From Janthinobacterium sp. (lineage in GTDB: Bacteria > Pseudomonadota > Gammaproteobacteria > Burkholderiales > Burkholderiaceae_D), in the NCBI GenBank assembly GCA_031431155.1, contig JANPCW010000204.1, forward strand, positions 2,461 through 66,460: 64,000 nt of DNA, in the 5' to 3' direction. The translations under genes were made by a program, and so were the position numbers. The notes beneath the pieces were generated by a model, which was not told the origin of the DNA, searched no databases, and was given only the letters and a program-made list of their open reading frames with translations. Of this stretch, positions 95-55,414 are shown in pieces (the first letter of the stretch is position 1; every line of letters starts with the position of its first letter).

Positions 95-270
95 GCCGGC
101 ACTTTCAACGCCGCGCGGACGCGATCCTCCAGGCCAATCCATTCCTCATGCTCTCGCGCCAGCTTGCGGGCTTGCTCGCGCCACGCTGGCACCTGCGCCG
201 GGTACTGCCGGCAAAGGGCGACGTAGTGCTGCACGATCTTCGTGGTTTCGGCGTCGAAGTCGAAGCTCAT
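91..270 (-). CDS. hypothetical small protein (59 aa)
   Basis: Hand translation gives MSFDFDAETTKIVQHYVALCRQYPAQVPAWREQARKLAREHEEWIGLEDRVRAALKVPA. Its ATG overlaps the upstream stop (ATGA at 267-270). It falls below the 60-aa cutoff of the track. Confidence 0.5.
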   Translation of the reverse strand: MSFDFDAETTKIVQHYVALCRQYPAQVPAWREQARKLAREHEEWIGLEDRVRAALKVPA

Positions 271-743
271 ACGCCCAATCCCGAGAAGGGCGATGAGTAA
301 TTGCGCCGGGCCTCGCCGCGCGCAATGCGATAGAGATAGCTCGTTGGCACGTTCAGCGCAGCCAACTCGCTGTCATCGCCGGTCGTGCGGAATCGGGCCA
401 CCACGTCATCCGTGATGCGCGATCCGGCCCTGCGCGCCTTTGCAATCGCAGCAGTGTGCGCCAAGCTCTTTGGCTTGCCGACAAATACTGCGCTGCGTGT
501 GCGCGCAACCAAGTGCTCCGGGTGAGTGCAGCCGAGCACACAACTCAGCCGGGCGCCGACAAACTTCTTTCCGGGGCTTCGCTCGTTTACCAGCGCAAAC
601 AAGTCCCTGCGCACCAAGCGTGTGCCGATCCCCGATGCGTAGTATTGCGGTTGTCCTTGGGGGTTGATGTACCCGGTCCACACCCAGCAGCCGTCTTCCT
701 CGCGGACCCGAGATTGCAGCCAATCAAGCGTGAGTGCCTTCAT
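267..743 (-). CDS. HNH-type endonuclease-like DNA-binding protein
   Basis: N-terminal GCWVWTGY...LSCVLGCTHPEHL resembles the HNH_3 'CWxWtG...C..CvnPeHL' pattern. The C-terminal part is HTH-like (VPTSYLYRIARGE). The catalytic residues look degenerate. Confidence 0.55.
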   Translation of the reverse strand: MKALTLDWLQSRVREEDGCWVWTGYINPQGQPQYYASGIGTRLVRRDLFALVNERSPGKKFVGARLSCVLGCTHPEHLVARTRSAVFVGKPKSLAHTAAIAKARRAGSRITDDVVARFRTTGDDSELAALNVPTSYLYRIARGEARRNYSSPFSGLGV

Positions 744-937
744 GCTTTTGGCCCCGGTAGCGTCGCCGCGTCAATCGCCCGCCGAATCCACTCACCCCCC
801 GACACAGGCTTATTTCCGGCCCACCGCGCCAGCAGGCCGAGTTTCTGGCGCTGCGTTTTAGTCATCTGGAGCGAATACTGCGTGTCCAGGTACTTGGCCT
901 TGGGCCGGAAACCAGGATCGTCGATTTTTCGAGTCAT
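740..937 (-). CDS. hypothetical small protein
   Basis: ORF track entry with 4-nt overlaps to both neighbours, which suggests translational coupling. Confidence 0.5.
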   Translation of the reverse strand: MTRKIDDPGFRPKAKYLDTQYSLQMTKTQRQKLGLLARWAGNKPVSGGEWIRRAIDAATLPGPKA

Positions 938-1467
938 CCAAATACCTCTCCAGTTTCAGGGTCAATGTCGTGTCCGTCCCAAGTTTGCCAGTTCGGGACC
1001 GGGAACTCCACACCAAGGTCATTGATGGCGAAGGCTTGAAGCTGATCGAGGTACTTGGACATATCTCTCACGCCCAGGTCGGCCACACTCTTGAGTTTTC
1101 GCACGGTGCGCTTTTTTCGTTGGCCTGCAATCGTGATGATTTTGATGTCGTAGCCAAGGAACTGGCGCTTCATGGCCTCGTGCCACGCCTCGGCGGTCCA
1201 TTGTCCGCCAAGAGCCTGTCGCGCGATCACGCGCAGGCAAGGCCCAAAATAGAACCTCAGTTGCTTCAAGGTCTTGCTGTCCTCGAACTCCCCGGCCACC
1301 ACCACCACCTTCTTGCCGTCGGTGAGCATCTTCTTGCAGTAGGGCCAGATGCGGGTCTTGAACTCGACGTGCCCGTGCTCCTGGTTCTCCAGCAGGACGG
1401 TGAGGCCGGGCTTGACGTTGAGTTTCACACCCACCACGCCTTGATCCACTCCACAAAGCGCAGCCAC
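934..1467 (-). CDS. NinB/Orf-like recombination mediator (tentative)
   Basis: The segment LKQLRFYFGPCLRVIARQ..WTAEAWHEAMKRQFLG weakly resembles the NinB core by eye. A GTG at 1428 overlapping the upstream stop (GTGA) is a more likely start than 1467. Confidence 0.4.
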   Translation of the reverse strand: MAALCGVDQGVVGVKLNVKPGLTVLLENQEHGHVEFKTRIWPYCKKMLTDGKKVVVVAGEFEDSKTLKQLRFYFGPCLRVIARQALGGQWTAEAWHEAMKRQFLGYDIKIITIAGQRKKRTVRKLKSVADLGVRDMSKYLDQLQAFAINDLGVEFPVPNWQTWDGHDIDPETGEVFG

Positions 1468-1679
1468 AATGACCCGTGCTTGCGCACAAACTCGAAGCGC
1501 GCCACATAGCGGTCCTCAACCAACTCGATCACGCCTCGCTGCACCAAGCGCAGCGCAGCGGCGCGACGTTGCGGGATCGAATCAATCCAGGCCGGGTAAG
1601 CGGTGTCGTTCTCCACATGGGCAAGCACTTCTTGCTCGCGGCCGACGCGGGTGCGGAAGTCGGGCGGGGCAACGATCAT
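1425..1679 (-). CDS. hypothetical protein
   Basis: ORF track entry lying in an operon of overlapping genes. Confidence 0.5.
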   Translation of the reverse strand: MIVAPPDFRTRVGREQEVLAHVENDTAYPAWIDSIPQRRAAALRLVQRGVIELVEDRYVARFEFVRKHGSLWLRFVEWIKAWWV

Positions 1680-2020
1680 TTCGGCATCCTCTGCAAAATC
1701 AGGTTCCTGGTCATCAGCACGGCGGCCCCGCTCTTGATGTCTTCCTCGGTGAAGCGCAAGACGCTCCAGCCAAGAATGACCGCCGCGTTGTACTTGGTGC
1801 AGTCGTCAATGAAGCCCTGCGGCTGTTGATGCCGCCCTTTGGTCCAGACGCCGCCCTCACACTCCACCGCGATCTTGAACTCAGGCCAAGCGAAGTCAAA
1901 GCGCCACTTGCGCAACAGGTCGAACTTGAACTCGCGCATCGGCTCGGGCAGCTTGTGCGCCTTGACGTGCAGAGCGAACGCTTCTTCGAGGGCGCTGGGG
2001 GGCTTGGGGATTTTGGTCAT
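1676..2020 (-). CDS. DUF559/Vsr-like endonuclease-fold protein
   Basis: FDFAWPEFKIAVECEGGVW...GWSVLRFTEEDI matches the very-short-patch-repair/DUF559 restriction-endonuclease-like signature. Confidence 0.65.
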   Translation of the reverse strand: MTKIPKPPSALEEAFALHVKAHKLPEPMREFKFDLLRKWRFDFAWPEFKIAVECEGGVWTKGRHQQPQGFIDDCTKYNAAVILGWSVLRFTEEDIKSGAAVLMTRNLILQRMPK

Positions 2021-2418
2021 GCTGGCACCGCGATCCGATTCGCCACCCAGGTCCGCATGCGCGACCAGCGGCTCTCCTGGGTTTCATGGCCCCAGGAACC
2101 TTCGTCGTTCTCGTACACGATTTCAGCGGCCAGCGCGCGCGCCACGCCGAACAGTTTGCTGACGGCCTGGGCGTCTTCAATGTCCACCCCGGTCATGGGC
2201 AACCCACGCTTCTCTCCAAGCACACCAAGAGCGCAATACCCGCCCTCATGGACCAGTTCGTCCGCGATCAGTCTTTTCACCGGCATCGCGTCCAGGGCCT
2301 CAATCAGTTCGCGCAGCATGGCCTGCCCGCGCTGACCTCGGATGGCCGACTTCACGGCGCCACGCCACATGATGAGTTGCCAGCCATCGCAATCGTCGGA
2401 GTAGTTGCTGCGGCTCAT
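2017..2418 (-). CDS. hypothetical protein
   Basis: ORF track entry with an ATGA overlap to the downstream gene. Confidence 0.55.
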   Translation of the reverse strand: MSRSNYSDDCDGWQLIMWRGAVKSAIRGQRGQAMLRELIEALDAMPVKRLIADELVHEGGYCALGVLGEKRGLPMTGVDIEDAQAVSKLFGVARALAAEIVYENDEGSWGHETQESRWSRMRTWVANRIAVPA

Positions 2419-2570
2419 AGGTCGCGCTCAAAGAAAAACACAAACCCGAGGATTGTGAAAATCCATGTTTCGTACCATCCGCCAGCATCTTGGCGGCAAA
2501 AGTGCAGGATGTTCTTCGGCCTCCAGCAATGATGCCATTGGTCACGATTCCACAAGTTGACGCTCGACAT
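2415..2570 (-). CDS. hypothetical small Trp/Cys-rich protein with a hydrophobic C-terminus (51 aa)
   Basis: Hand translation gives MSSVNLWNRDQWHHCWRPKNILHFCRQDAGGWYETWIFTILGFVFFFERDL. Its stop overlaps the ATG at 2418 (ATGA). I see no clear SD sequence. Confidence 0.3.
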   Translation of the reverse strand: MSSVNLWNRDQWHHCWRPKNILHFCRQDAGGWYETWIFTILGFVFFFERDL

Positions 2571-2584
2571 GAATTTCAGTGGTT

Positions 2585-5856: not shown

Positions 5857-6125
5857 TGCTTACCGCCCATCAGTACGTCAACAACTTCGTCTCCGAGGAA
5901 GTTCTGCTTCCGCTTGGTGACGATGGTGAGGCCGTTCCCGTTCGTGTTGTACGCAACATGGACTCGAACGGGATGGGGGAAATCGTCTTGTCGATCAACA
6001 GGCGGACGGTTTTCCAGTTCCCCGTCGGCAAGGACACAAGCGACGAATCCGTCCAGGCCATGCAGACGCTTGCCCGCATGATCGGCGACGTGGCCGGCGT
6101 CAATATGGACATCAAGACGTGCTGA
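5853..6125 (+). CDS. hypothetical protein
   Basis: ORF track entry that overlaps both of its neighbours. Confidence 0.6.
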   Translation: MMLTAHQYVNNFVSEEVLLPLGDDGEAVPVRVVRNMDSNGMGEIVLSINRRTVFQFPVGKDTSDESVQAMQTLARMIGDVAGVNMDIKTC

Positions 6126-6727
6126 CCTTCGATGACGGCCCGCACGAATACCGCTGGAACGGCGCAGTCGTGCCCAGCGTCACGCAGATTCTCAAGCCCC
6201 TGATGTCCGGGTTGCAGTTCGTGGACCCGGAAGTCCTGGAGGCGGCGTCGGCGTTCGGGACTGCGGTTCACAAAGCCTGTGAACTTTCAGACCTGGGCAC
6301 GCTGGACGAGGCCGATCTGGACCCGGCGCTGGCGCCGTATCTGGAGGGGTGGAAGAAGTTTCAGCGCGAACGTCGTTGCAAGTGGCGCAACATCGAAGTG
6401 CCTAAGTTCCACAAGCAGTTTCGGTACGCTGGCACGCCGGATCGGCACGGCACCGTTGACGAATGGGAATCTGTCGTGGACATCAAAAGCGGCACGGCCC
6501 TGTTCCAGTCGGTGGGGCCGCAGCTTGCCGCCTATGAGCGCATCTGCGCCGATCCAGAACTCAAGGGGATGTTCACCATGCGCCGCATCGCCATCCTTCT
6601 CAAGCCCGATGGCACTTACCGGATGGAGGAATACAAAGACCCCTCCGACTGGTCCGTTTTCATGTCGCTCATCACCCTGCGCGGGTGGTGCGCGAAGCAT
6701 TCCGTCACCCCGAACTTCAAGGATTGA
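6119..6727 (+). CDS. PD-(D/E)XK (Cas4/RecB-like) exonuclease
   Basis: It has HEY..PSVTQIL at the N-terminus, GTAVH, and the core RYAGTPD...VVDIKSG...QLAAY typical of phage RecB-family exonucleases. Confidence 0.7.
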   Translation: MLTFDDGPHEYRWNGAVVPSVTQILKPLMSGLQFVDPEVLEAASAFGTAVHKACELSDLGTLDEADLDPALAPYLEGWKKFQRERRCKWRNIEVPKFHKQFRYAGTPDRHGTVDEWESVVDIKSGTALFQSVGPQLAAYERICADPELKGMFTMRRIAILLKPDGTYRMEEYKDPSDWSVFMSLITLRGWCAKHSVTPNFKD

Positions 6728-6729: not shown

Positions 6730-7014
6730 ATGGCAAAGATCGACCCGGATGCACCACTCAAGCTGACGCCGCGATCATTCGACCCGGTGACGAGCAGAAC
6801 GATGGTTGGCGACGAGCGCGCCCGTGTCATCGAAGCAAAGGCCCGAGCCGATGCAGAGAAGGGACAGGAAGGATTCGACCCGCCAGCGCCGCGCTACTCC
6901 GCCGACACCTATATGGGCAGGGTGAGCAATTCTTTTGAGAGCAACGTGTACTTCGACCAATTCAAGAGGCGCCTTGAGCGCATCCAACGCATAGCAGAAA
7001 AGGAAACCACATGA
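6730..7014 (+). CDS. hypothetical protein
   Basis: Start at MAKIDPD, 3 nt after the upstream stop. Confidence 0.6.
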   Translation: MAKIDPDAPLKLTPRSFDPVTSRTMVGDERARVIEAKARADAEKGQEGFDPPAPRYSADTYMGRVSNSFESNVYFDQFKRRLERIQRIAEKETT

Positions 7015-7856
7015 TCGACTCAGCAGAAACCATCGTCACCAAGGGCCAAGTGGCCTATGACGCCGCCAGCGCCATTGTCCTGGGGCAGCAGGCACGGCGC
7101 ATGCTCGCCATGTCATCCGACTACATCATCGACTCCGACTCGCTGATGACAGCCGCAGGGGACGACCTTCGCAACATCAAGACCTTGCAAAAGCAGGTCG
7201 AGGAGCAGCGCACGGCCATCGCCGGGCCGCTCAACACCGCCGTCAAAGCGGTCAACGACCTGTTCCGCCCGGCCAAAGACTGGCTGGAGAAGGCCGAAGC
7301 CCAGATCAAGAGCGCCATGCACATTCGCATCGAGTACGTCGAGAAGACGGCGCGCGAGGAAGCGGCCAGGGCGGCAGAGCGTGAGCGGGTCGAGCGTGAG
7401 CGCATCGCCGCCGAGCAGCGCGAGCAGGAACGTCTCGCGCGCGAGGCCCAGGAAGCAGTGGCGGCAGCCCAGCGCGAGGTTGATGCCGCAGCGGCGCGCG
7501 GCGACGAGCAGGCAAGGCTTGCGGCGGAACAGCAGGCGCGCGAGGCCGAAGCCCAGGCCGAGGCCGCCAGCCAGAACGCAGCAGCAGCAGCCGTCCAGGC
7601 CGAAGTCATCAGCCTGCCCAGCGCCGCGCCAGCGCCGCTCAAGGTGGCCGGGGTGTCATCGTCCAAGACGCTGGACTATGAGGTCACGGACTTGCTGGCG
7701 ATCATCAAGCACGTCGCCGTCCACCCCGAGTTGGTCAACCTGTTGGTGGCTGACTCGGTGAAGCTGCGCGCCTACGTCCGCCTCGTCGGCGAGGCCAACA
7801 AAATCCCCGGCCTGCGCGTGTTCGAGAAGCGCAGCATGTCGGCTCGTAGCAAGTAA
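7011..7856 (+). CDS. hypothetical coiled-coil protein
   Basis: The central region is E/R/A-rich (AERERVERERIAAEQREQERLAREAQEA) and is flanked by globular ends. Confidence 0.6.
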   Translation: MIDSAETIVTKGQVAYDAASAIVLGQQARRMLAMSSDYIIDSDSLMTAAGDDLRNIKTLQKQVEEQRTAIAGPLNTAVKAVNDLFRPAKDWLEKAEAQIKSAMHIRIEYVEKTAREEAARAAERERVERERIAAEQREQERLAREAQEAVAAAQREVDAAAARGDEQARLAAEQQAREAEAQAEAASQNAAAAAVQAEVISLPSAAPAPLKVAGVSSSKTLDYEVTDLLAIIKHVAVHPELVNLLVADSVKLRAYVRLVGEANKIPGLRVFEKRSMSARSK

Positions 7857-12852: not shown

Positions 12853-13056
12853 CTAAGTGGGGCCAAAGTCGTCGTCAGTGATGGCCGTTTCAGCCACCCG
12901 TCTTTCCTGCTGATGGACAACACCGCGCATCTGCCCGATCAGCCACTGCTTGATGTCAGCAATAGTCGGGTCCGTAGGCATGCTCAGATGCTTTTTGAAG
13001 GCTCCTTGCGCGCGGGTTGCTTGGGCGTTGGTAAGGTCGATGGTTAGGCTTGGCAC
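12853..13056 (-). CDS. hypothetical protein
   Basis: ORF track entry. Confidence 0.55.
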   Translation of the reverse strand: MPSLTIDLTNAQATRAQGAFKKHLSMPTDPTIADIKQWLIGQMRGVVHQQERRVAETAITDDDFGPT

Positions 13057-13142
13057 AACGGCTCCTTGAGGTTAAAATAACGAAGCCGAACACGCGCTGA
13101 TAACGCGGCCCGGCCTCTGACCACAACGCGAGGAACCGCATC

Positions 13143-13664
13143 ATGGCTGCTGACAATCTTACCGCGCAACGTCTGCGCGAGCTTCTGAATTACGACCCCG
13201 ACACCGGCGTATTTACCCGCCGCTTGAAAAACGCGAATTGCGTCAAGGTTGGCGACGTGGCGGGAGGTCTCGACGGGCGAGGGTACTGCCGCTTCCGAAT
13301 CGACGGCAAGAAACACCGAGCGCACAGACTGGCATGGCTCTACATGCACGGAGACTGGCCGTTGGGGGAAATAGACCACATCAATGGCTTGCCCGCTGAT
13401 AACAGGATTTCCAATCTGCGCGATGTATCGCACGCCGAGAATGTTCAAAACGTGCATAAGCCGAACAAAGACAACGAATCCTGCGAATTTCGCGGAGTTC
13501 ACTGGCACAGGCGCGATCTGAAGTGGACGGCGCAAATCCGCGCCAATGGCAAGATTAAATGGCTTGGCGCCTTCCCCACGAAAGAGGCTGCGGCAGAAGC
13601 CTACAAACAGGCCAAGCGCGTTCATCATGTCAGCGCCGCCGTTGATAGCCACCCACCATCGTAG
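13143..13664 (+). CDS. HNH-AP2 homing endonuclease
   Basis: YDPDTGVFT, AHRLAWLYMHGDWPLGEIDHINGLPADNRISNL (HNH_3), then an AP2-type DNA-binding domain (FRGVHWHRRDLKWTAQIRANGKIKWLGAFPTKEAAAEAY). It lies on the opposite strand to the late operon. Confidence 0.85.
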   Translation: MAADNLTAQRLRELLNYDPDTGVFTRRLKNANCVKVGDVAGGLDGRGYCRFRIDGKKHRAHRLAWLYMHGDWPLGEIDHINGLPADNRISNLRDVSHAENVQNVHKPNKDNESCEFRGVHWHRRDLKWTAQIRANGKIKWLGAFPTKEAAAEAYKQAKRVHHVSAAVDSHPPS

Positions 13665-14845
13665 ATGTACAGCTTGTTGTTCGTGGTATCGAACTGGATA
13701 GCCACCTGTCCGGTCTTTGCCGCAGGGATGCCAGTCGGAGCGCCTGCGCTGGTTTGGATGTAAACGTGCCCTGTTGTCGCGCCTGTAGCCAAGGCCGCAG
13801 TTCCAAACCACGCGCCGCCATCAGCGTTAAATGTGCTTGTGGCGCTGAGAGTGCCTGTTACTGCTAGGCCGGTGGAGTCTAGGGTAGCCACAGTGGCAGC
13901 AGCCATTCCGCGACCTGCTTTGAAGTACAGCTTTGAGTCGGCGTTGATGGTTCCGATTGTCCATCTGTCAGCTATGGCGTCCTCAGTGAATGTCAGCTGT
14001 GCTGTTTTACCTGCGGCTGGGCGTAGGTGCCATTCGAGGCCCGTTGTGGATACCACAACGCCACCGATGGTGCCCAGTCCAGTGGGTGCTGTCATATTTA
14101 GCAGGCCAGACCAATTCGACGTTGCGGTTGATGTGCAGGTAATTGTTCCCGTGCTGCTGAGAGTGCCTGTTACTGCTAGGCCGCCTGCCATAATGACGCC
14201 CTGCGCGTCGGGGTCAATACTGACCAACTGCCCCGCCGACATTCCGATGACGCGAATGTCGGCGGAGTTGGCATTATTCCTAGCCGACAAGAACGATGCC
14301 GACGGCATCCGAAAAGCGCCTGTCGTCGCCGGAGTAGTGCCGGAAACGATTGCCGCAGCAGTCAGTGCGCCGCTCACCGTAACGTTGTTTGAAGCATCGA
14401 TCGAGATACCCGCCGAAGTTCCTGCACGACTAATGTAGTTCGCACCAAGAGTAATGCCGCCGTTTGGACTCAAGGCTCCGCTGAAACTACCAGTCCCCGT
14501 AACCCCCAACCCCGTAGCTGAAATATCCAGCACCTTCACGCCGCTGATCGCGTAGCCGTGGTTGTTGGCTCCGATGCGGTAGAGGCCGGAGCCTGTCTCA
14601 GCGTTCAGGTACAGGCTTGGGGCGGCTACGGTGCCAGAGGCAAAGTTGGCAACCCCGCTGAAGCTTTGGATACCTGCAAAGGTGTTGGCTGCGTGCGTTA
14701 CGGCAAGCGGGAATCCCCCCGCTGTCGCGCCGTCATGGACGACGACGGTTTTCTTGTCAGTATCAACCGTGACTTCGCCCAGCGCACCCGTGAAGGATGC
14801 GTGCTGGGCGGTCGTGCCGCGACGGCGTTTGACTTCAACTGCCAT
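13625..14845 (-). CDS. tail fibre protein
   Basis: The N-terminus RRRGTTAQHASFTGALGEVTVDTDKKTVVVHDGATAGGFPLA matches the conserved phage tail-fibre / Mtd-type N-terminal domain. The rest is Gly/Thr/Ala-rich. Confidence 0.75.
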   Translation of the reverse strand: MAVEVKRRRGTTAQHASFTGALGEVTVDTDKKTVVVHDGATAGGFPLAVTHAANTFAGIQSFSGVANFASGTVAAPSLYLNAETGSGLYRIGANNHGYAISGVKVLDISATGLGVTGTGSFSGALSPNGGITLGANYISRAGTSAGISIDASNNVTVSGALTAAAIVSGTTPATTGAFRMPSASFLSARNNANSADIRVIGMSAGQLVSIDPDAQGVIMAGGLAVTGTLSSTGTITCTSTATSNWSGLLNMTAPTGLGTIGGVVVSTTGLEWHLRPAAGKTAQLTFTEDAIADRWTIGTINADSKLYFKAGRGMAAATVATLDSTGLAVTGTLSATSTFNADGGAWFGTAALATGATTGHVYIQTSAGAPTGIPAAKTGQVAIQFDTTNNKLYIYDGGWLSTAALT

Positions 14846-14930
14846 GATGCGGCCCTACAATGCGCAACGCCCCAAGGTTTGCATCCAAGGGGCGCCACTT
14901 CCCACACCATTGCTTTGAAGGAGCAACAGC

Positions 14931-15434
14931 ATGAGCAAGCAGAATTCTACGTTGACGCAAGAGCGCCTTCGCGAGGTCTTGCACTATGACCCGGAGACTG
15001 GGATTTTCACCTGGAGAGTCAATCGCGCCCAGATGGTCGCGGGGAGCGTTGCAGGTGGCCCGAACGGCAAGGGGTACTGGTACATCAAGATCGACCGTTA
15101 CTCGTACCCGGCACACCGCCTCGCTTGGCTCTATGTTCACGGGGTATGGCCACCCTTTGACACCGATCACCACGACACCAAACCATCGAATAACCGCATC
15201 GATAATCTGCGCGAGGCAACGCGCGGCCAGAACCGCCAGAACATGCGCAAGGCGCACAAGAACAACAAGGCTGGGCTGCTTGGCGTCATGTGGCACAAGC
15301 AGAGCCAACGCTGGCGCGCGAAGATCACGGTCGATGGGAAAGGCATTCATCTTGGAAACTTTCTCACTCCTGAACTTGCCAGCGCGGCCTACGCTGAGGC
15401 CAAGCGCAAGTACCACCCGTTTGCAACAGTCTGA
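14931..15434 (+). CDS. HNH-AP2 homing endonuclease (paralog of 13143-13664)
   Basis: YDPETGIFT, AHRLAWLYVHGVWPPFDTDHHDTKPSNNRIDNL, and an AP2-like LLGVMWHKQSQRWRAKITVDGKGIHLGNFLTPELASAAY. Confidence 0.85.
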   Translation: MSKQNSTLTQERLREVLHYDPETGIFTWRVNRAQMVAGSVAGGPNGKGYWYIKIDRYSYPAHRLAWLYVHGVWPPFDTDHHDTKPSNNRIDNLREATRGQNRQNMRKAHKNNKAGLLGVMWHKQSQRWRAKITVDGKGIHLGNFLTPELASAAYAEAKRKYHPFATV

Positions 15435-15442
15435 ATAACCCT

Positions 15443-16270
15443 TCAAAGCGTGAGGGTATACGTGCAATTGAGAGTGTCACCGTTGATAACAGAGCGGCTA
15501 CCGCCCGAGAAATCACCAGCCGAGAACAAAATCCCGGTGGTGTTGTCCTTTGTCGCGCTGCCGCCGTTGTTGATGAAGCAACCGAACACCGTGCCGGTGG
15601 ACGTGATGGCAAAGGCCTGGGTCGGACTGGCCGAGGACCGAGCGCCGGCACCGGCGCCGGTCGCCGCGTTCATGGTCACGTCCTTGCGGTTGCCGGTGTA
15701 GGTCGGGGCGTTCGCCAAGCCCTGCTCCAGCCATGCGCCGTGGGAGGCTTGCGTGTCGCCCACAACCGCCGTGCCGGTGCCTTTGAGGCCCATGCGGATG
15801 GTCTGGGTGTAGGTCGAGCCCTTCATGTACTTGTCGAGCAAGTCCAGAGAGCCAACGTCGGTAACGATGTTGTCGAACGCCTCTGCGTGGAGCACGTCTT
15901 GAAACGGCCGCATCTGGGCTGTCAGCGCGGCTTCTTCGGCGCGCAGTGACACGAGTTCGGCCAGGGCCGTGTTGTACTCGCTGGCTTCCTCCAGCACGTC
16001 CTGGGCCAGCCCCAGAGCTTCGATCCAGGCCTTGAGCTTCTTCACGGGCGCTTCGAGTACAGCGGTTGTGAGGCTGAGTTGCTTGGGCACCAGCGGAAGC
16101 AGCATGCCCTCCATCCTGGTTTCGAGCGCAGCGATCTTCTCGGTCGATTCGTTGCGCGCAGTCCACAGCGGCCAGAACTTGGCATTCTTTTCGGGATCGG
16201 CGCTGGGGCGAAGGTGTTGCAGGCCGTATTGACCATGAACGCGCTTCTGGGGGGCTTGGATTTCGGACAT
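15443..16270 (-). CDS. hypothetical virion protein
   Basis: Start at MSEIQAPQ; the 77-codon extension in the track looks like noise. The C-terminal domain resembles that of CDS 40762-41268. Confidence 0.6.
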   Translation of the reverse strand: MSEIQAPQKRVHGQYGLQHLRPSADPEKNAKFWPLWTARNESTEKIAALETRMEGMLLPLVPKQLSLTTAVLEAPVKKLKAWIEALGLAQDVLEEASEYNTALAELVSLRAEEAALTAQMRPFQDVLHAEAFDNIVTDVGSLDLLDKYMKGSTYTQTIRMGLKGTGTAVVGDTQASHGAWLEQGLANAPTYTGNRKDVTMNAATGAGAGARSSASPTQAFAITSTGTVFGCFINNGGSATKDNTTGILFSAGDFSGGSRSVINGDTLNCTYTLTL

Positions 16271-16281
16271 GGCTTTCGCTC

Positions 16282-16560
16282 CTATCGTTGGACAATTCGT
16301 AGAGTCACCGACCGATCTTCCACCCTGGGGGTCGCGCCGGTGGTCGTAATCCGGCACGTTATGGTTTCGTTTGTCCCGGCGGTTCCGCCAGAGACGTAAA
16401 TTGTTGCAGTGTCCGCCGTGTTGGCTACCGCCACCTGGGTCAAGCCTGACGAAAGAACCCACGCCACCGAGGCGATGGAAACCCCAAGCGGGGTCAGCCA
16501 ATCCTGCCAGTCGAAGACATAGTCAAGCGTCGCGTTCGGGTCTTTCTTGAAGGTGGGCAT
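16282..16560 (-). CDS. hypothetical small virion protein
   Basis: Start at MPTFKKDPNATLDYVFDWQDWL. The protein looks like a beta-rich, Ig-like domain. Confidence 0.6.
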   Translation of the reverse strand: MPTFKKDPNATLDYVFDWQDWLTPLGVSIASVAWVLSSGLTQVAVANTADTATIYVSGGTAGTNETITCRITTTGATPRVEDRSVTLRIVQR

Positions 16561-16632
16561 ATTCAGTTCAGGAATGACAATGCCGGGGCATTGTAACTTT
16601 CGGTCCTTATGACCGCAACGCATAATGAGGGC

Positions 16633-16785
16633 ATGGAACTCCTGGCCCTATTGTGGTTGGCCTGTCTCGTCTGGGTGTTTGCCGCTCCCAGTGAGGGGCA
16701 TCGCCAACAGATGCTTCTGGCGTCTTGGGGGGTGTTGCTAATTCCCGTCATATTCGGTCTGCTCAAGCTGCTTTTCGGTCGGTGA
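16633..16785 (+). CDS. candidate 50-aa two-transmembrane peptide, antisense to the late operon
   Basis: Hand translation gives MELLALLWLACLVWVFAAPSEGHRQQMLLASWGVLLIPVIFGLLKLLFGR. It lies in the 200-bp gap after the giant gene and overlaps that gene's last codons. Only a poorly spaced GAGG precedes the ATG. Confidence 0.3.
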   Translation: MELLALLWLACLVWVFAAPSEGHRQQMLLASWGVLLIPVIFGLLKLLFGR

Positions 16786-40541: not shown

Positions 40542-40762
40542 TCATTTCTCCTGTGGTTGACCGGACCAAATGCGTCCGGCGATTACTTTGCAAATTGTGC
40601 TACCACTCACGCCGAACTCGGCAGCCAATGTGGCCTGTGTGACTGTGCCGCTGGAAAACCTGGCTCGAATTTCACGCGCCAACGTGACTCGAAGCTGGAA
40701 GCCGAGCCGATATACCGCTTGCCATCCAAGCGGTTGGTGATTGAATATATGCCGGTTTCCAT
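40542..40762 (-). pseudogene. decayed GIY-YIG homing endonuclease
   Basis: Hand translation from the ATG at 40762 gives METGIYSITNRLDGKRYIGSASSFESRW (canonical GIY..YIG), then nonsense and a stop at 40607. A shifted frame continues as AREIRARFSSGTVTQATLAAEFGVSGSTICKVIAGRIWSG (a typical HEase C-terminal HTH), with a stop at 40542-40544. The nuclease core between them is missing. Confidence 0.7.
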
Positions 40763-41268
40763 CACGCAGAAATGAGGGTGAAGCCGGCCGTCACGCGCAG
40801 CACTTCGTCGTCGGCCAGTGGTTTCGGCGAAGCAAATCTCACCGCCGACAACAGGGTGCCAGACGTTGCACCCTTGGCGGATGCCGATGTGATGAAGCCG
40901 CCATAGATCGTGACTGTGGTGTTTATGGTGAACTCGGCCCGCGACGCTGAATTGTCCACAGCGCCGGCAGCCACCGTGCCGAACACCAGAATCTCGCGCG
41001 TGGCCTCGTCATAGGCAGAACTCTCCGTCGCCGAACCTGGGAACGTAGCGGCGGTGTCGCCGTTGACGGGCGTGTAGTTGCCGCTGAACAGGCCCATGTA
41101 CCACGATGTCACCTGGGCGCCGCCCTTCAACTCGGTGTTGAGAAGGTGGTTCAGGCCTTCGGTGGGCATCAGGTTTTTGATGACCTCCGAGTCGCGCACG
41201 TTGCCGGCCTTGTCGATCACTTCGATCAGGTAGGTGAATGCGGCCTTCATTTCGTCTTTTGCTTGCAT
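40762..41268 (-). CDS. hypothetical small virion protein
   Basis: ORF track entry. Its C-terminal domain is similar to that of CDS 15443-16270. Confidence 0.6.
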   Translation of the reverse strand: MQAKDEMKAAFTYLIEVIDKAGNVRDSEVIKNLMPTEGLNHLLNTELKGGAQVTSWYMGLFSGNYTPVNGDTAATFPGSATESSAYDEATREILVFGTVAAGAVDNSASRAEFTINTTVTIYGGFITSASAKGATSGTLLSAVRFASPKPLADDEVLRVTAGFTLISA

Positions 41269-43204: not shown

Positions 43205-44800
43205 TCATGCGGCCAATCTCATGTCCAGTTTCCAGTCTTCGTACCTGCGCATGATCGCAAGAAACACGCCGTTTGGCGAGATATTTTGCTGACACAGCGC
43301 GGCGCCGGTTTCGGCGTCTTCGTGGCAGAACTCCTTGCCGTAGTGCAGACGGTGGCACGGGTAGCAGTTCGTGCCCTGCGGCTCCATGACATCGGTGAGC
43401 TTCCAGTGCTTGGTCAAGTTTTCATGCGACGAGTGCGAGAGCATGATGACCTTGGGCACGGGCTCGAACGCCACGGAATTGAGAATCCCGGTTTCAGGTC
43501 CGACCACCAGATCAACCTGCTGGGCCAGCGTCAGGGAGTCGCGGATGCCCACTTCGCCAGAGGTACACATGATGCGCTCGGTTTCTTCCCAGCCGGCCTC
43601 AAGAATCTTGCACGGCTCGTCGCCGTTGAGAATCAGCAAAAGCTCCGGGATGTTGTCGAGCAGGCCCTGGATCACCGTGTCCTGGTGCGGATAGAACTTG
43701 TGGACGGATGACCCGGCAAGGCACCACAGCACGTTGAAGCGCTCCTTCGCCCTCATGGGGATGGGCAGGCCCGTGGCGAGCCGATTGCGGGCCGCACTGA
43801 GCATGGCGGCGGCTTTCTTCTTTTCCTCTGGGCTCGGGAAGAAGCGGGCTTCCTCGCTGTAGGGCAACTCGGCAAGCCGCGCCGTCCACTCCAGGTAGTT
43901 CTTGTTCAATTCCACCTTGCGCACGGAATGGGGCCAGCCGTGATTGGTCCTGCCGGGGAAGGCCAGCAGGGTTCCCTCGACCGACTCACTCAGGTTGATG
44001 AAGCGGTCAAAGCGCTTGGCCTGGGACGCCCAGAACAGCGGCAACTCATGGTTTGGAACCTGGTCCTCGTCTTGCAGCATGAACTCATCAATGTGCGGAT
44101 CGTGCTTGAGGATTTCGTGGCCCCTGGGCGTGGTCATAAAGACAACAAAATATCCCTGGCGCTTGAGTTCCGGCAGGATGCCGGCGGCCTGAATGGAATC
44201 GCCGAACCCGCCGTAGCGCACCACGCACGCGCTCTTGGCCGGGCGCACGCGCGGCGCCATGACCTGAAACCCGCTATCGTTCTTTTGGAACACCTGGAGG
44301 AAGCTGTACTCGCGGTCCTGGTCGCGCACTTCCTCGACCAGCAAAGTCCATGAGCCGATGTCGCTCATGGCGTCCAGGATGTCATCTTCGGTGAAGTCGT
44401 GAACGTGATCCGGGTTGGCGCCGAGCCTGCCGATGTTGGGGTACAGGTTGCGGTGGGGCAGGTACAAGACCAAGTGCCCGCCGACCTTGAGGCAGCGCCA
44501 CCAGTCTCTCAGGGCGGCATTGTGGTCAACGATATGCTCCAGCAAGTGGCTGCTGAACACGAAGTCCACCGATGCGTCCTTGACGCAATCGCTCAGATCG
44601 GCGGCGTCCTTGCAGACGACATCGGGCTTCATCTTGATGCCAAAAAGCTCGGTGTCCTTTTGGCTGTCGATGCCCAGGAAATGCGGGAAGGCCTTTTTTG
44701 GGCCGCAGCCAACATCGAGCCCGACGCCGCGCGTGTACTGAACGATGTCGTACTTGCACTTGTCGGCCTCATTGCCCTGGGGATCATCAAGCCGCCACAT
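43205..44800 (-). CDS. class I SAM-dependent methyltransferase fused to a GT9 (heptosyltransferase-like) glycosyltransferase
   Basis: The N-terminal part has GLDVGCGPKK, VDFVFSSHLLEHI and LKVGGHLVLYLP (Methyltransf_11-like). The C-terminal part has ACVVRYGGFGDSIQAAGILPELKRQG ... VVGPETGILNSVA (GT9 pattern). A Cys/His-rich tail follows. Confidence 0.7.
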   Translation of the reverse strand: MWRLDDPQGNEADKCKYDIVQYTRGVGLDVGCGPKKAFPHFLGIDSQKDTELFGIKMKPDVVCKDAADLSDCVKDASVDFVFSSHLLEHIVDHNAALRDWWRCLKVGGHLVLYLPHRNLYPNIGRLGANPDHVHDFTEDDILDAMSDIGSWTLLVEEVRDQDREYSFLQVFQKNDSGFQVMAPRVRPAKSACVVRYGGFGDSIQAAGILPELKRQGYFVVFMTTPRGHEILKHDPHIDEFMLQDEDQVPNHELPLFWASQAKRFDRFINLSESVEGTLLAFPGRTNHGWPHSVRKVELNKNYLEWTARLAELPYSEEARFFPSPEEKKKAAAMLSAARNRLATGLPIPMRAKERFNVLWCLAGSSVHKFYPHQDTVIQGLLDNIPELLLILNGDEPCKILEAGWEETERIMCTSGEVGIRDSLTLAQQVDLVVGPETGILNSVAFEPVPKVIMLSHSSHENLTKHWKLTDVMEPQGTNCYPCHRLHYGKEFCHEDAETGAALCQQNISPNGVFLAIMRRYEDWKLDMRLAA

Positions 44801-45806: not shown

Positions 45807-46328
45807 CTAAGTTCCAATCTCAGCCGTAGCATACCCTTTATTGAGTTTGATGCGACTGATCGTATTCTGTGTGACGCCAAATACAGCCCCGATTTTTTCT
45901 TGACTGATCCCGCCAATCTCCAGCATTTTTCTCACTTGCCTTGCCTGCTCATTTGTCAACAGCGCATTGTGGTTTGCTTCACCAATCAATCTCGCATGCT
46001 GCGCTCCAGAAAACTTGACTCGCTTTTGTTCTTCGCCAACCGGGTGAGCCGATTTGTGGCACCGGAAACAAAGCCAGTCAACATCCAGGGGGCGGCCGTA
46101 ATCATCGTGGTGTGCATGCACTTTCTCGGTCGCTGCGCAAAGCCGGCATGGTTGCCTAGCAAGAAGCCCTTGCCTGATCGCGTAATTGAGCCTGTTTTGC
46201 GCGGCAGTCTTTTCGCGATTTCTCGCTCGATATGCGCGCGCCAACTCAGCATGGCGTTCGGGATGGGCTTTTTTCCAGGCACGGGACATTTCTTTCTGCT
46301 GCTCGTACTGCTGTGGTTTGCGGTCCAT
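45807..46328 (-). CDS. HNH endonuclease with a C-terminal HTH
   Basis: CRLCAATEKVHAHHDDYGRPLDVDWLCFRCHKSAH is the HNH core. ISQEKIGAVFGVTQNTISRI is the HTH. Confidence 0.8.
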   Translation of the reverse strand: MDRKPQQYEQQKEMSRAWKKAHPERHAELARAYRARNREKTAAQNRLNYAIRQGLLARQPCRLCAATEKVHAHHDDYGRPLDVDWLCFRCHKSAHPVGEEQKRVKFSGAQHARLIGEANHNALLTNEQARQVRKMLEIGGISQEKIGAVFGVTQNTISRIKLNKGYATAEIGT

Positions 46329-51422: not shown

Positions 51423-52076
51423 TCACAACAGCAGTCCTCGTTCCCGCATGAAATCGGCGGGGTGTTTTGCACCTTTTTGGCCGTTGCATCGCTGACGAAG
51501 AAGCTGAATATTGTCGTCGGTGTTCGACCCGCCCAACGCGAGCGGCATGATGTGGTCAAGATGGTATTTCGCTCCAAGGGGTTGCGCGCAGCATGCGCAT
51601 TTTCCTTGCTGCAATATGAACAGCCTGTCGGAGAGGTTGCGCGAGAGAACGCCGCCAGCCAACCGACTGCGGCGATTCTGCGTTTGCAGCCTAGCCCATT
51701 CTGGGTTTTCTTTGCGTCGCCGCCGTGTATTGGCCGTTACCTTGGCGCGGTTGGCTATGCCCCATGCGGCATTCTTTGCGCGAACTTTGTCCTTGTTGGA
51801 GGAAGCCCATTTGGAAGTCCTGAAATTACACTTTTCTGGGTTGGCTTTTTGCCATGCTGCTGTGAGCGCTTTTACTCTATCAGGATATTTGCTCCTATAT
51901 GCTGCCGATCTGGTTTTTACAATATCCTGGTGCTCCAAATAGTACGTGGCATTGCGTTCTTTCAGCCGCTCCGCGTTTGCGACTCTCCATGCTGCGCCGC
52001 GCGACTTGGCGCATGCCTTGCAGTCACCTTTTTTGTTTCGGTCGGTGCTGCCGCATTTAATGCACGGTTTCATCAT
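51423..52076 (-). CDS. HNH endonuclease
   Basis: The C-terminal core is CACCAQPLGAKYHLDHIMPLALGGSNTDDNIQLLRQRCNGQKG. The N-terminus has a Cys4 zinc finger and repeated W..AN.E motifs. Confidence 0.85.
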   Translation of the reverse strand: MMKPCIKCGSTDRNKKGDCKACAKSRGAAWRVANAERLKERNATYYLEHQDIVKTRSAAYRSKYPDRVKALTAAWQKANPEKCNFRTSKWASSNKDKVRAKNAAWGIANRAKVTANTRRRRKENPEWARLQTQNRRSRLAGGVLSRNLSDRLFILQQGKCACCAQPLGAKYHLDHIMPLALGGSNTDDNIQLLRQRCNGQKGAKHPADFMRERGLLL

Positions 52077-52264
52077 GGTTGCGGAGGATCGGTGTTGTAG
52101 TGATTGCGCTCGTAAAACTTTCTGTTATTTGAAAAGTGGTAGGCCGCGTCATAGGGCTGCTTGATGACATCAATGCCATCCATGGCCTCGGCTGCCGCGA
52201 CGACTTCGGCCCAGAGCTTTTCGCTGGTTTTGACGGTGGATTGTGGTCCGAGGGGCATGGTCAA
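52073..52264 (-). CDS. hypothetical small protein
   Basis: ORF track entry that overlaps the start of the HNH gene. Confidence 0.5.
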   Translation of the reverse strand: MTMPLGPQSTVKTSEKLWAEVVAAAEAMDGIDVIKQPYDAAYHFSNNRKFYERNHYNTDPPQP

Positions 52265-52702
52265 TCTCCTTCGCGCGTGATTGTAGGCGCGTCAGATGCC
52301 CATAGGAAGACCCCGAGGCTCCCGACCTGACCCGGGTTTTGGAGCCTCTTTCGGCCATCCTTGCGGACTGCCGCTCGCTGAACGTCGCATTCGATTGTCA
52401 GGCGCCCGTCCGTGGGCCAAACGCTGCGTCGGTGTGCATTGCCTGTTTTTGTGGTCGCTGCGAAACGCCACGGCGCCGGGGTCTTGAACTGAAGCGTCAT
52501 CGGTACTTGGGTGCGGCCCCGACATTGGCCCATAAGCTGCGTCAACTGGCGCCCTGACCTCGGAAACGCAAAAAGGGTCTTTCTGCTGCGTTTACTTGGT
52601 GCGACCACACCACCCTTTCGGGACGTAAACGCATGAGAAAGACCCCTCATTCGTGTTGTCGCAGTGTGGTCGCACATTTGACGGAACGGATGGTAGCACA
52701 GT
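52265..52702 (-). promoter_or_regulatory. 438-bp non-coding structured region immediately downstream of terL
   Basis: No credible ORF is present. The 21-nt box at 52680-52700 also occurs at 3450-3470. There is a 12-bp perfect inverted repeat (52599-52610/52664-52675), a nested terminator hairpin, and further 8-bp stems such as GAGGCTCC/GGAGCCTC. Confidence 0.45.
52570..52645 (-). terminator. candidate intrinsic terminator with a composite stem
   Basis: On the minus sense, GGGUCUUUCU (52645-52636) pairs with AGAAAGACCC (52584-52575), and UUUUU (52574-52570) follows. Inside are the stem GCGUUUAC/GUAAACGC and a CCCGAAAGGG hairpin. Confidence 0.4.
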
Positions 52703-55414
52703 TTATGATCCATCGGTGAAGGTTTCAGGCTCAAGTGTACGCTGGTCAATGATGATTGGTCGAACTGGGTCCATGTCGTATATTCTGCTCGCACTATCCA
52801 TGAAGTCCTTTTTGGAACTGAACGGGTAGGTCAGGTATTCTTCGAGGAACCCCTTGTTCAGCGAGTACAGGTTCCCCTCATGGTCCTTGGCCTTGGTCGG
52901 CTTGAAGATGCGAAACGACTGCCCTTCTTCGCGGATTTTCTTCTGATTGGCCGTCTCGCCATCGGTTATGGCGGCCAGATAGTACCGGCCGGCGGCGAAA
53001 TCGGGCTGGAGACGCTGCACCCGGTCATCCTTGGCCGTGGTCCCGTCATGGGTCCAGGACAACTCGACAATCTCGAAGGAATCCTTGATCGCCTCCATCT
53101 TTTCCTCGAAATACTCCAGGTCCGACTGCATGCCGTACTTCTCGTAGCCGACCCGCACCATCTGGACCCCCACCGTGTTGACCCAGCGCTTGCGCAGCAG
53201 GTAAAGGTGCTCCCAGCGCTCCTTGAGCCCCATCTTGTGCCGAAATCCGTCGAGCAGATACTTGTTGCCACCCGAGTCGATCCCGGTTACAACCATGGCC
53301 GTGTTGTCCGAACCCTTCTTTTTCGAGTTCGCGGGGTCCACCGTGATGTAAATGTTCAGCGTCGCAGGGCGGATGTCGATGAAGCGCAGCCATTCCTTCT
53401 TGAACATCGCCTCGTTCCCGGCCGCCGGGTTCAAAAGCTGCTGGCAGGCAATCGTCGCCGGCCCCTGCTTCTGCTTCTTGTCCCCCCAGGCCTCGGGCGT
53501 GAGCAAAACCGGCTTGCCGTCCGCCGTGCCGTCATCGGTCGCCGGGTACAGCCTGACCTTGAGCGCCCCCTTGTCGATGATGTCCTGGTAGGTGTCGCCG
53601 AAGTGATACCGAGTCCCCGAGTGCCAAGCGCGCAGCGACCCATCCTCGCCCCGAGCCCCAAGGTTGTCCGACAACTCCCATGCGTCCGTCGTCTTCTTGA
53701 CCTGTTCGGGCGTGTTCACCGACGCCAGCGTCACCACGTCGTCATAGACCCGCAGCCGGTAGTGGGCGCCGGTAGGCTGCCCGTCCACCAGACCATGGGC
53801 CTCAATCGTCGCCTCCTTGGGGTTGGACTGCCTCTTGACAGTCAGCCCCTTTTCCTCCGACCATGTGGGGCTCTCGCGCTGGGGTTCGGCGTAAAAAATC
53901 TGTGGATAAGTCCTCTGCAACTCCCGGTTCGTCTCCAACTCCAACTTGATCTGGAGCATGAACTTTCGGGCAATCGGCTTGGTGTGCGAGAAAATCCCAA
54001 CCGTGACCTCCGGGTCGATGATGATTTCCTGGATGATCCCGGCGAACGTGATGATGGTGCTGTTGTGCGTGGTGACCATCTGCCGGCCGGCAAGGTACAG
54101 GCCGTCGGGGCGCTCCACCTGGATGCAGGACATTGGCACGGGCGCGATGGGCGTGCAATCCACTATGTAGCGGCGCGGGTGTGGCCGTGCGCCGGGCTTG
54201 GCACGCGCGGCCTTGCGCGGCAACCGGAAAGGGTTGGCTTCCTGATATGCCTGGAACGCCACTTGCCAGACCGGGCCGAACTCGTTTTTGTACTCGTAAA
54301 CCGATGGCTTGAGTCCCAGGCCGGTAGCCAACTCATAAACGTCGTGCACAAGACGCTCGTTGGTATTGGTGAAAGTCGCGGTGCCTCGGGTATTGCAGTG
54401 ACCGTCGGTGTCCATGAGTCCGCGCAACAGTTCCATGCGCTGGCGCGTGCTGCCACGCTGGTAGAAGACCGGGATGTGCTTGTCGCCCAGGATGCGTAGG
54501 CCTCGAAGCAGCGGTCGAAGCCCGTAAACCGTTCGCGTGACGGCATTTGGCTTGCTTGGAGCGGCGTCTGGGCCTACGATGTAGCCTTCTGCCTTGATGG
54601 CGTCGAATATCGCCTGGTCCTCGCCGGTTATGCGGCCATCGGCCGCCGATCCATCGCCAAGCCACGCGCCCAACGTGTACGGCTCGATGGGCAGCAAAGC
54701 ATCGGGCATGTTCAGCGGGGCATTGACCGGGATAGCCAGGCGGTTGTCAGCCGTGTGCTGGTGCGAATGAATATCGCGCGTGCTCAGTGTCACTGCTTCG
54801 CGGTACTGGCGCCCATTGGATGTGCCTGCAATGCGCTTGCGTGTCTTGCGCTCGACATCCCACAGATGGTCGGCGCCGGCCTGCATCACAGTCCCATCGT
54901 CAAAGCTGAGTTCAAAGGCATCGCCTTCCGTGAAGACCTCTGTGCAGGCCACAACGCGGGTCGGCATGCCATCCGGCCCGTACACCCAGTCACCATGCCT
55001 CAATGCTCCATGGGTGGTCCAGCCGCTTGGCGTTGGCACCGGCTCGTCAGTGCGCAGCATTTTGTAGTGTTCCCGAGCCCATAGGTCCAGGTATCCATCC
55101 GGGTCGAGTTCAACCTCGCGGCAGCGCGCGTAAATCCAGGGATGGACGGCATCAGAGCGGTGCAGCAGCTTCGTCAACAGGTAGAACCTGTCGTGGCGGC
55201 CCAGCCACCCCACCGCAATCTCCCCGAAACTGACCTCCAACTCGGCCCAAAGCTCCCGGATGCCAGTAAACGGCGCCGCCAGCAGCAACGGCTTGAACCG
55301 ATCCAGCACCGCCAAACGCTGCGCCAGCGTCAGTTCTGGAGCCTTCGGAGCCTTCTCGACCTCCTTCTTGGGTCGCCCACGCTTCTTCACGGGGGCATCA
55401 ACGTCAGCTTCCAT
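52703..55414 (-). CDS. terL: terminase large subunit (intein-containing)
   Basis: The Walker A region LWAREHYK|STIITFAG is split by an intein. Walker B is LRVYDDV. The nuclease half contains YITVDPA and MVVTGID. Confidence 0.85.
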   Translation of the reverse strand: MEADVDAPVKKRGRPKKEVEKAPKAPELTLAQRLAVLDRFKPLLLAAPFTGIRELWAELEVSFGEIAVGWLGRHDRFYLLTKLLHRSDAVHPWIYARCREVELDPDGYLDLWAREHYKMLRTDEPVPTPSGWTTHGALRHGDWVYGPDGMPTRVVACTEVFTEGDAFELSFDDGTVMQAGADHLWDVERKTRKRIAGTSNGRQYREAVTLSTRDIHSHQHTADNRLAIPVNAPLNMPDALLPIEPYTLGAWLGDGSAADGRITGEDQAIFDAIKAEGYIVGPDAAPSKPNAVTRTVYGLRPLLRGLRILGDKHIPVFYQRGSTRQRMELLRGLMDTDGHCNTRGTATFTNTNERLVHDVYELATGLGLKPSVYEYKNEFGPVWQVAFQAYQEANPFRLPRKAARAKPGARPHPRRYIVDCTPIAPVPMSCIQVERPDGLYLAGRQMVTTHNSTIITFAGIIQEIIIDPEVTVGIFSHTKPIARKFMLQIKLELETNRELQRTYPQIFYAEPQRESPTWSEEKGLTVKRQSNPKEATIEAHGLVDGQPTGAHYRLRVYDDVVTLASVNTPEQVKKTTDAWELSDNLGARGEDGSLRAWHSGTRYHFGDTYQDIIDKGALKVRLYPATDDGTADGKPVLLTPEAWGDKKQKQGPATIACQQLLNPAAGNEAMFKKEWLRFIDIRPATLNIYITVDPANSKKKGSDNTAMVVTGIDSGGNKYLLDGFRHKMGLKERWEHLYLLRKRWVNTVGVQMVRVGYEKYGMQSDLEYFEEKMEAIKDSFEIVELSWTHDGTTAKDDRVQRLQPDFAAGRYYLAAITDGETANQKKIREEGQSFRIFKPTKAKDHEGNLYSLNKGFLEEYLTYPFSSKKDFMDSASRIYDMDPVRPIIIDQRTLEPETFTDGS
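54062..55060 (-). mobile_element. intein (333 aa) with a LAGLIDADG homing endonuclease, in the terL P-loop
   Basis: It spans aa 119-451. It ends in VTTHN followed by a +1 Ser. LAGLIDADG motifs are LGAWLGDGSA and LRGLMDTDGH. Block B is ADHLW and block F is PMSCIQV. Confidence 0.8.

Follow-up and report, generated by a model that had tools for sequence, protein, structure and literature searches.

The genome of phage T4, which has been termed an oddity, carries 15 homing endonuclease elements that make up about 11% of its coding potential, and marker exclusion by free-standing endonucleases is established for the same phage (Edgell, Gibb and Belfort 2010, PMC2988022). Class 3 inteins have no nucleophile at position A1 and carry Trp at B12, Cys at F4 and Thr at G5, and the Lys|Thr site in the P-loop of TerL has been called a classic insertion point (Kelley et al. 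2016, PMC5050341). The ShiLan domain is a hidden, out-of-frame HNH domain in the DNA methylase genes of mycobacteriophages; the words "antisense", "reverse" and "opposite strand" do not occur in the paper describing it (Arsenault, Gosselin and Gogarten 2025, PMC11855218). The DNA considered here is a stretch of 64,000 nucleotides, hereafter the window, comprising bases 2461-66460 of contig JANPCW010000204.1 from a fragmented metagenome-assembled genome (MAG; 4.09 Mb, 946 contigs). It represents most of the complete circular genome of an uncultured SU10-like podophage from freshwater sediment and holds a dense set of homing-type elements: genes of the HNH and GIY-YIG families, two LAGLIDADG inteins, and an HNH gene lying antisense inside a giant gene for a predicted polyvalent virion protein.

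Overall, it is very probable that at least nine independent homing-type elements colonised this podophage genome, and that they did so in three ways: as free-standing genes, as inteins in the P-loops of two ATPases, and as an antisense-embedded HNH gene. The sporadic distribution of the elements among related phages would then have its origin in homing. The elements and their host genes are the following (positions in the window; HTH, helix-turn-helix).

267-743, minus strand: HNH-like gene, 158 amino acids, divergent; phrog_826 (HNH endonuclease), E 2e-8.
13143-13664, plus strand: free-standing HNH_3-AP2 gene; HNH_3, E 4e-15, 55.6 bits; AP2, E 5.7e-8; phrog_99, E 3e-63.
14931-15434, plus strand: second free-standing HNH_3-AP2 gene; HNH_3, E 2e-13, 50.2 bits; phrog_99, E 7.6e-68.
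16763-32494, minus strand: predicted polyvalent virion gene, an open frame of 5,243 codons; the called protein and its homologues match LPD1, AAA_34, Helicase_C_4 and LPD38 of Pfam.
24677-25726, minus strand: intein of the giant gene, 350 amino acids (giant-protein residues 2257-2606); LAGLIDADG_3, 33.0 bits.
30779-31402, plus strand: HNH_3-HTH gene, 207 amino acids, with two Cys4 fingers; HNH_3, E 1e-12, 47.8 bits; weak HTH match.
40542-40762, minus strand: GIY-YIG remnant; its N-terminus reads GIY...YIG, after which the frame breaks, and a C-terminal HTH follows in a different frame.
45807-46328, minus strand: free-standing gene for a His-Me-finger (HNH-type) endonuclease with a C-terminal HTH; phrog_2340 ("endonuclease"), E 5e-22; CxxC...HAHH...CxxCH finger.
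51423-52076, minus strand: free-standing HNH endonuclease gene, 217 amino acids; HNH_5, E 3.8e-10 (40 bits); HNH (PF01844), E 2.3e-8 (34.5 bits).
52703-55414, minus strand: terL, 903 codons, an intein host; relatives align unbroken over residues 38-118 and 452-903.
54062-55060, minus strand: terL intein, 333 amino acids (terL residues 119-451); LAGLIDADG_3 (PF14528), 34.9 bits.

The nine elements sum to 5,573 nt, that is, 8.3% of the genome or one element per 7.5 kb; T4 alone serves as the benchmark for this load, and the figure of 8.3% is not a ranking among podophages. A six-frame scan of the 4.09-Mb assembly placed on the phage contig all three HNH_3 matches and both LAGLIDADG_3 matches above the Pfam cut-offs (24.8 bits for HNH_3, PF13392; 22.5 bits for PF14528; 22.6 bits was used for PF01541). 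The initial annotation of this DNA had listed the same nine elements together with a small DUF559/Vsr-like gene, all of which were found in place, and it had put three elements on the opposite strand, which is also the case: three lie on the plus strand within the minus-strand late operon. Its expectation that so dense and diverse a load should vary among relatives is borne out at the terL, post-capsid, terL-portal and giant-gene sites, where the distribution is sporadic; the pattern that it had named as refuting, with every gene fixed at its position in all relatives, was not encountered at these sites.

The members differ in how they match known families. The two HNH-AP2 proteins are 47% identical to each other, and the AP2 match of the second (E 7.3e-6) lies below the gathering score. 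The gene at 45807-46328, wedged between the capsid gene and the next head gene, has no Pfam HNH match, and the HNH gene at 51423-52076 is placed between terL and the portal gene. The product of 267-743 aligns poorly with the other HNH_3 genes, with no match in Pfam or the PDB and no relatives in a word-based sequence search. The GIY-YIG sequence scores 22.1 bits against PF01541, below the cut-off, and covers only model positions 3-33 of 78; judged by this incomplete catalytic domain, it is a remnant and not a functional member. Beside it stands a gene of 168 amino acids (40762-41268, minus strand), missing at the corresponding position in most relatives, and an HNH-AP2 gene is likewise adjoined by a gene of 352 amino acids (15443-16501, minus strand), the C-terminal domain of which is 30-34% identical to the 168-residue product via common matches in relatives. 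It is tempting to suppose that the remnant and its neighbour may have arrived together.

Both inteins sit in ATP-binding loops: that of terL in the Walker A loop, between Lys and Ser, and that of the giant gene in the helicase P-loop, between GDGTG and GKGR. Since homologues are unbroken across both insertion points, the boundaries of the inserts are fixed; four giant-gene homologues read through the helicase P-loop without an insert. Position 1 is Met in the terL intein and Pro in the other, neither of them a nucleophile. In each intein a Trp stands two residues past the His of block B, block F contains a Cys, and the insert ends in T-H-N, with Ser or Thr as the next residue (in the translations ...HLW; ...SCIQV and ...CQCISV; ends ...TTHN|S and ...VTHN|T). 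With the blocks assigned by eye and no profile used, the W/C/T signature is present in both, which makes them class-3-like inteins that are predicted to splice. They are about 30% identical to one another in a tblastn cross-match.

Site occupancy was scored in 89 loci, of which 80 came from a metagenome scan with the capsid protein and nine were viral contigs; in the nearest relatives, capsid-protein identity reaches 76-80%. Of 29 relatives, 28 lack the terL intein; it occurs, at the identical site, in L119 only, with 70% identity in the intein and 54% and 68% in the exteins; a closer relative, L103 (terL C-extein 79% identical), has no intein. Between the capsid gene and the next conserved gene, 23 relatives have an empty gap of 59-142 bp, as against 597 bp in the window. 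Three others have a 750-bp gap holding a different HNH of 241 amino acids with NUMOD3-like repeats, and L134 and L132 carry homologues of the window HNH-HTH gene directly after the capsid gene (75% identity over 40 amino acids in L134). The HNH at 51423-52076 has no homologue in any of the 89 loci (terL 51-79% identical), and the spacer from terL to the small gene before the portal gene measures 229-820 bp in 22 relatives and exceeds 1 kb in five; in the window its length is 1,407 bp. Neither the helicase intein nor the antisense HNH occurs in the four nearest giant-gene homologues (P0009-P0012).

Relatives also harbour other elements at further sites, for instance GIY-YIG genes that lie next to or within their counterpart of the head-module methyltransferase gene (window 43205-44800). 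Outside the head module the comparison becomes thinner: the viral-contig relatives found with the portal (L002-L010) and the 93%-complete G001 have only that module in common with the window, HNH_3 has no match in G001 or in the MAG behind L093, and left-arm scans with the neighbour genes of 352 and 177 amino acids returned only distant, poorly syntenic loci without HNH-AP2 homologues, which is weak evidence. Overall, the distribution among relatives appears sporadic, as expected of mobile elements, and the whole phage lineage is a playground for homing-type elements.

Some details of these sites can be added here. The spacer on the portal side of terL varies greatly in length across the lineage, between 229 bp and 6.8 kb (e.g., L008, L121, L139, L146 and L006), and in the window, in the region of 52077-52702, it contains besides the HNH about 440-625 nt without a convincing open reading frame (ORF). 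The GIY-YIG genes of relatives have NUMOD3-like repeats (L110, 12732-13436; L103, 12523-13353; L107, about 12855-13040), and the GIY-YIG insert interrupts the methyltransferase alignment in L110 and L107.

The course of events that we propose is as follows. By the free-standing route, the two HNH-AP2 genes, the HNH-HTH gene, the HNH between terL and portal, the HNH-like gene and the now decayed GIY-YIG gene would have settled between conserved genes; by the intein route, LAGLIDADG inteins would have entered terL and the giant-gene helicase, two essential ATPases, in both cases at the ATP-binding loop; and by the embedded route, an HNH gene would have settled on the opposite strand of a disordered linker of the giant gene, its codons in line with those of the host. 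To judge from the families involved, each nuclease would cut the element-free allele of a related phage during co-infection. Recombinational repair, perhaps aided by exonuclease genes of the phage, would then copy the element together with flanking markers, and repeated homing might lead to the sporadic distribution seen among relatives. On this view the GIY-YIG remnant would stand late in a cycle of invasion, fixation and decay, perhaps together with the 267-743 gene.

Several points weigh against this scenario. Nuclease activity, splicing, transcription and homing are all predictions made from sequence. In L119 the intein and its exteins have diverged to a similar degree, and vertical descent with many losses fits this equally well as transfer does. 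No co-conversion gradient is visible beside the common HNH-HTH gene in L134. Contigs of four sediment runs include no empty-site variant over positions 13001-33000 and no joint that skips an element. As even the nearest relatives share just 76-80% capsid identity, the absences attest to long-term gain and loss and not to ongoing mobility. For both HNH-AP2 genes, as well as for the 267-743 and DUF559-like genes, at most distant relatives were available for comparison. Finally, the catalytic His and Asn positions of the 267-743 product look substituted by eye, so that this protein may be catalytically dead.

Among the alternatives, the best survivor, which we nevertheless consider unlikely, is that the nucleases are weapons against co-infecting phages or satellites, so that selection at the level of the phage, through marker exclusion, and not only selfish drive, keeps the load. 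The members of the lineage bear different nucleases at the same or neighbouring sites, as one would predict where there is a gain from cutting rivals; the giant polyvalent gene also belongs to a conflict type, and T4 offers the precedent of marker exclusion by free-standing endonucleases (PMC2988022). Sequence data do not separate this idea from plain selfish homing, and the decayed GIY-YIG gene indicates that at least some members are not maintained.

A second alternative, which we find rather improbable, holds that some or most of the nucleases are domesticated phage functions and not selfish: the HNH on the terL side would serve as a packaging cofactor, the HNH-AP2 pair would act in fibre exchange or regulation, and the 267-743 product would be a DNA-binding regulator. 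An HNH beside terL is a packaging cofactor in HK97-like cos phages, and the gene at 51423-52076 does lie within the packaging module, between terL and portal. Its absence from all 89 related head-module loci means, however, that it is not a lineage-wide packaging factor. The post-capsid site, too, is empty in most relatives or holds unrelated nucleases. The apparent loss of catalytic residues in the 267-743 product, seen by eye, and the open frames kept in all intact nuclease genes would suit domestication. So would the position of the HNH-AP2 pair, which exactly brackets a receptor-binding fibre gene:

13625-14845, minus strand: tail-fibre gene with an Mtd_N domain; PF18454, E 2.9e-17.

The two HNH-AP2 genes lie on the plus strand on either side of this minus-strand gene, and the one at 13143-13664 is convergent with it, overlapping the 3' end of the fibre gene by 40 nt. 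Such bracketing would place the host-range fibre gene within any co-conversion tract. In a tail-fibre scan, which returned relatives of the N-terminal domain only, an HNH-AP2 gene adjoined an Mtd_N fibre in just one of 80 other loci, and so there is no recurrent fibre cassette. This speaks against a domesticated role of the pair.

The giant gene, which hosts one intein and the antisense HNH, is predicted to encode a large polyvalent virion protein. Its motifs include an HExxH peptidase-like motif, an NPPF-type methyltransferase, a Sno-type helicase and LPD1/LPD38, with long low-complexity linkers, and its N-terminal domain has no Pfam match. Large polyvalent proteins of phages and conjugative elements have reportedly been described by Iyer and Aravind. 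The HNH gene at 30779-31402 corresponds to residues 365-572 of the giant protein and is exactly codon-aligned with it in antisense (register 0), flanked in the giant frame by Pro/Gly-rich low-complexity sequence. A GGAG motif stands 8-11 nt upstream of its ATG, and a scan for the sigma-70 consensus around the gene found nothing. The giant frame remains open because the HNH gene is devoid of TTA, CTA and TCA, the complements of which are stop codons; in this register, the stop codon that ends the HNH gene is read in the giant frame as Leu or Ser. In relatives that lack the HNH, a single frame links this N-terminal domain with these downstream domains, through a long variable linker, and therefore the giant gene must be read through at the HNH. 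Independent contigs, from two sequencing runs, extend across the junctions of the element.

The arrangement recurs. A 53%-identical HNH is embedded likewise in the giant gene of L011 (3,961 codons, with RadC and ART domains). Among the 22 best viral-contig matches to these two HNH proteins, 16 are antisense, in register 0, inside open frames of 667 to more than 2,800 codons, mostly cut off at the ends of the loci, and they lie at differing positions in differing polyvalent genes. Together with the window gene, these 16 matches and that of L011 form a set of 18 embedded members, nearly all of which have GGAG 7-10 nt before the start codon. TTA, CTA and TCA are wholly missing from all 18, an outcome with a probability from 0.42 down to 1e-6 under host codon usage, with the smallest values in hosts of 45-50% G+C; in relatives that are not embedded, the median is 2.5 of these codons per 100. 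In the closest pair (L021 and L033), 35 substitutions are synonymous and 32 non-synonymous in the HNH frame, against 8 and 59 in the giant frame. Since the synonymous changes fall mainly in the HNH frame, it is the nuclease whose amino acids are constrained, and the giant frame is just kept open. The embedded members also cluster on a tree, with 5 label changes against 16.3 in shuffles and none of 500 shuffles as low; this was a quick tree from a sample picked by similarity to the queries. The antisense peptide, which has no Pfam match, matches 146 representative protein clusters, 117 of them of at least 1,000 amino acids.

A literature search found no paper on antisense, codon-aligned embedding of an HNH gene. 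We think it probable that such embedding gives homing endonuclease genes a general way into essential protein-coding genes, the third after introns and inteins. It would be used by a dedicated HNH_3 clade purged of the codons that complement stops, with the disordered linkers of giant polyvalent virion genes as its main niche, and the host protein would bear the nuclease gene, read in reverse, as a passenger peptide.

Two further observations concern HNH relatives. Sixteen HNH relatives outside giant frames (L027, L042, L087, L089 and 12 further loci) have no TTA, CTA or TCA in the matched part; some of them are at 33-44% G+C, and in several the antisense frame is open almost exactly over the HNH gene only. 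They may be former embedded elements or lie in smaller host genes. In the giant frame of L020, the antisense-HNH peptide matches twice, at residues 947-1062 and 1357-1446, and this frame may carry two embedded HNH genes.

It could be objected that the antisense HNH is not read through at all, and lies in an unrecognised intron or opposite a frame that is open by chance at 60% G+C. For the window gene alone, an open antisense frame indeed has a probability of 0.09, and group I introns may be too divergent for Rfam, which at gathering thresholds found no intron and no other RNA family in the whole window. An intron does not need an open frame, however, and all 18 embedded members are open in the same register, which in hosts at 45% G+C has a probability of 6e-5 to 1e-6. 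As the relatives without the HNH also join the domains on either side in one frame, we consider this objection very unlikely to be right and prefer to view the HNH as a gene embedded in a translated frame.

The nature of the phage follows from the contig, which is 67,590 bp long, far longer than every other contig of the MAG, and accounts for 1.65% of the 4.09-Mb assembly. Its first 139 bases are repeated at its end, and this overlap implies a circular assembly, with a genome close to 67.45 kb. It carries genes for a portal and an adaptor of SU10 type, the small and large terminases and a capsid protein, besides the 5,243-codon gene, and the phage DNA is present in freshwater-sediment metagenome runs of one study, with no RNA dataset among the listed runs. 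No host genes flank the phage on the contig. A search for tyrosine integrases (PF00589) found none on it, with all 16 matches of the assembly lying elsewhere; serine recombinases and repressors were not specifically searched. We conclude that this is a free phage genome and not evidently temperate. The description "temperate-looking" in the initial annotation is not supported, given the free circular assembly and the lack of PF00589 on the contig. A megablast of 20 kb against cultured phages returned no match, and by protein the nearest cultured phages are Vibrio phages, with 42% identity in the portal. That the load is an artefact of assembly or binning, a chimeric contig pooling the elements of several phages, is barely conceivable even for a contig from a fragmented MAG of 946 contigs, given that this contig closes on itself through its 139-bp overlap, that its head-module gene order agrees with relatives throughout, and that long contigs from two runs (of the same study, possibly the source) cover 13001-33000 without differences.

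Some further features of the window should be recorded, among them the DUF559-like gene, which was left out of the count of homing elements, and the exonuclease-family genes mentioned above.

1676-2020, minus strand: small DUF559/Vsr-like (PD-(D/E)xK-type) protein; PF04480, E 0.007, below the cut-off; phrog_503 (function unknown), E 6.5e-37.
6119-6727, plus strand: exonuclease-family gene; phrog_298, E 4e-23.
7011-7856, plus strand: exonuclease-family gene; phrog_10477, E 2.6e-18.

An ORF of 116 codons (26044-26394, minus strand) lies in the Gly-rich linker that separates the methyltransferase from the helicase of the giant protein; it shares the strand of the giant gene and is in another frame. 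Its codon-position G+C is normal, and that of the giant frame there is not. In the giant gene of a relative (L093, 17226-17624), an ORF 39% identical to it (E 6e-19) likewise begins with ATG and is out of frame. Judged by these features, the ORF looks like a real nested gene; against Pfam it gave sub-threshold matches only. The composition anomaly at 25.9-26.5 kb was also considered as a further endonuclease and rejected, being a Gly-rich linker with this nested, non-nuclease ORF.

What do these observations mean for the biology of homing endonucleases? A load near that of T4 in a small podophage indicates that such crowding is not confined to large myoviruses. The lineage offers empty, differently occupied and decayed sites, and with them material for studying how structural genes are reshuffled, including the bracketed receptor-binding fibre. 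The antisense HNH, complete with a start codon, a stop codon and a ribosome-binding site of its own, fits into an essential gene with neither an intron nor an intein; gene callers overlook it by design. It offers a clean natural case of selection holding an antisense frame open, and the reverse translation of such HNH genes has been deposited in more than 100 giant-protein clusters. An intein and an antisense-embedded gene stand side by side in one giant gene, with free-standing elements elsewhere in the genome, which makes a compact comparison of strategies.

Compared with described systems, the heavily colonised genome is of a known kind, and the antisense-embedded member is a variant without a match in the literature. 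Like T4, this phage bears a very high load (about 11% in T4, 8.3% here) of mixed families, HNH and GIY-YIG, that are mostly free-standing between conserved genes, with one or more on the opposite strand and a sporadic occurrence among relatives. T4 is a 169-kb myovirus, whereas the genome described here is that of a 67-kb SU10-like podophage with no intron-borne members, and neither its two inteins nor its antisense-embedded member has a counterpart in T4. By count, the density is higher here, at one element per 7.5 kb as against one per 11 kb.

Both inteins resemble the class 3 inteins of actinophages (PMC5050341) in lacking a nucleophile at position 1 and in having the W/C/T blocks and a LAGLIDADG domain, and that of terL is likewise inserted between the Walker A Lys and Ser/Thr. 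Their host, in contrast, is an environmental SU10-like podophage, and a second, related copy is found in the Sno-type helicase of a polyvalent protein.

The closest published case for the embedded gene is ShiLan. In both, a zinc-finger HNH lies within a phage coding gene, the host frame is free of stops, intron or intein features are missing, and the occurrence is sporadic. The ShiLan HNH is read from the same strand in another frame of a methylase gene, whereas the HNH described here lies on the opposite strand, aligned codon by codon, in a giant polyvalent virion gene, and with this register there are just three sense codons to avoid. The antisense HNH works alike, without being a member of the ShiLan arrangement. 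Finally, the giant gene product shares its architecture and low-complexity linkers with the known large polyvalent proteins (LPD1, LPD38 and AAA_34 families), and what stands out is that its gene has taken in an intein, an antisense HNH and, as it seems, a small nested ORF.

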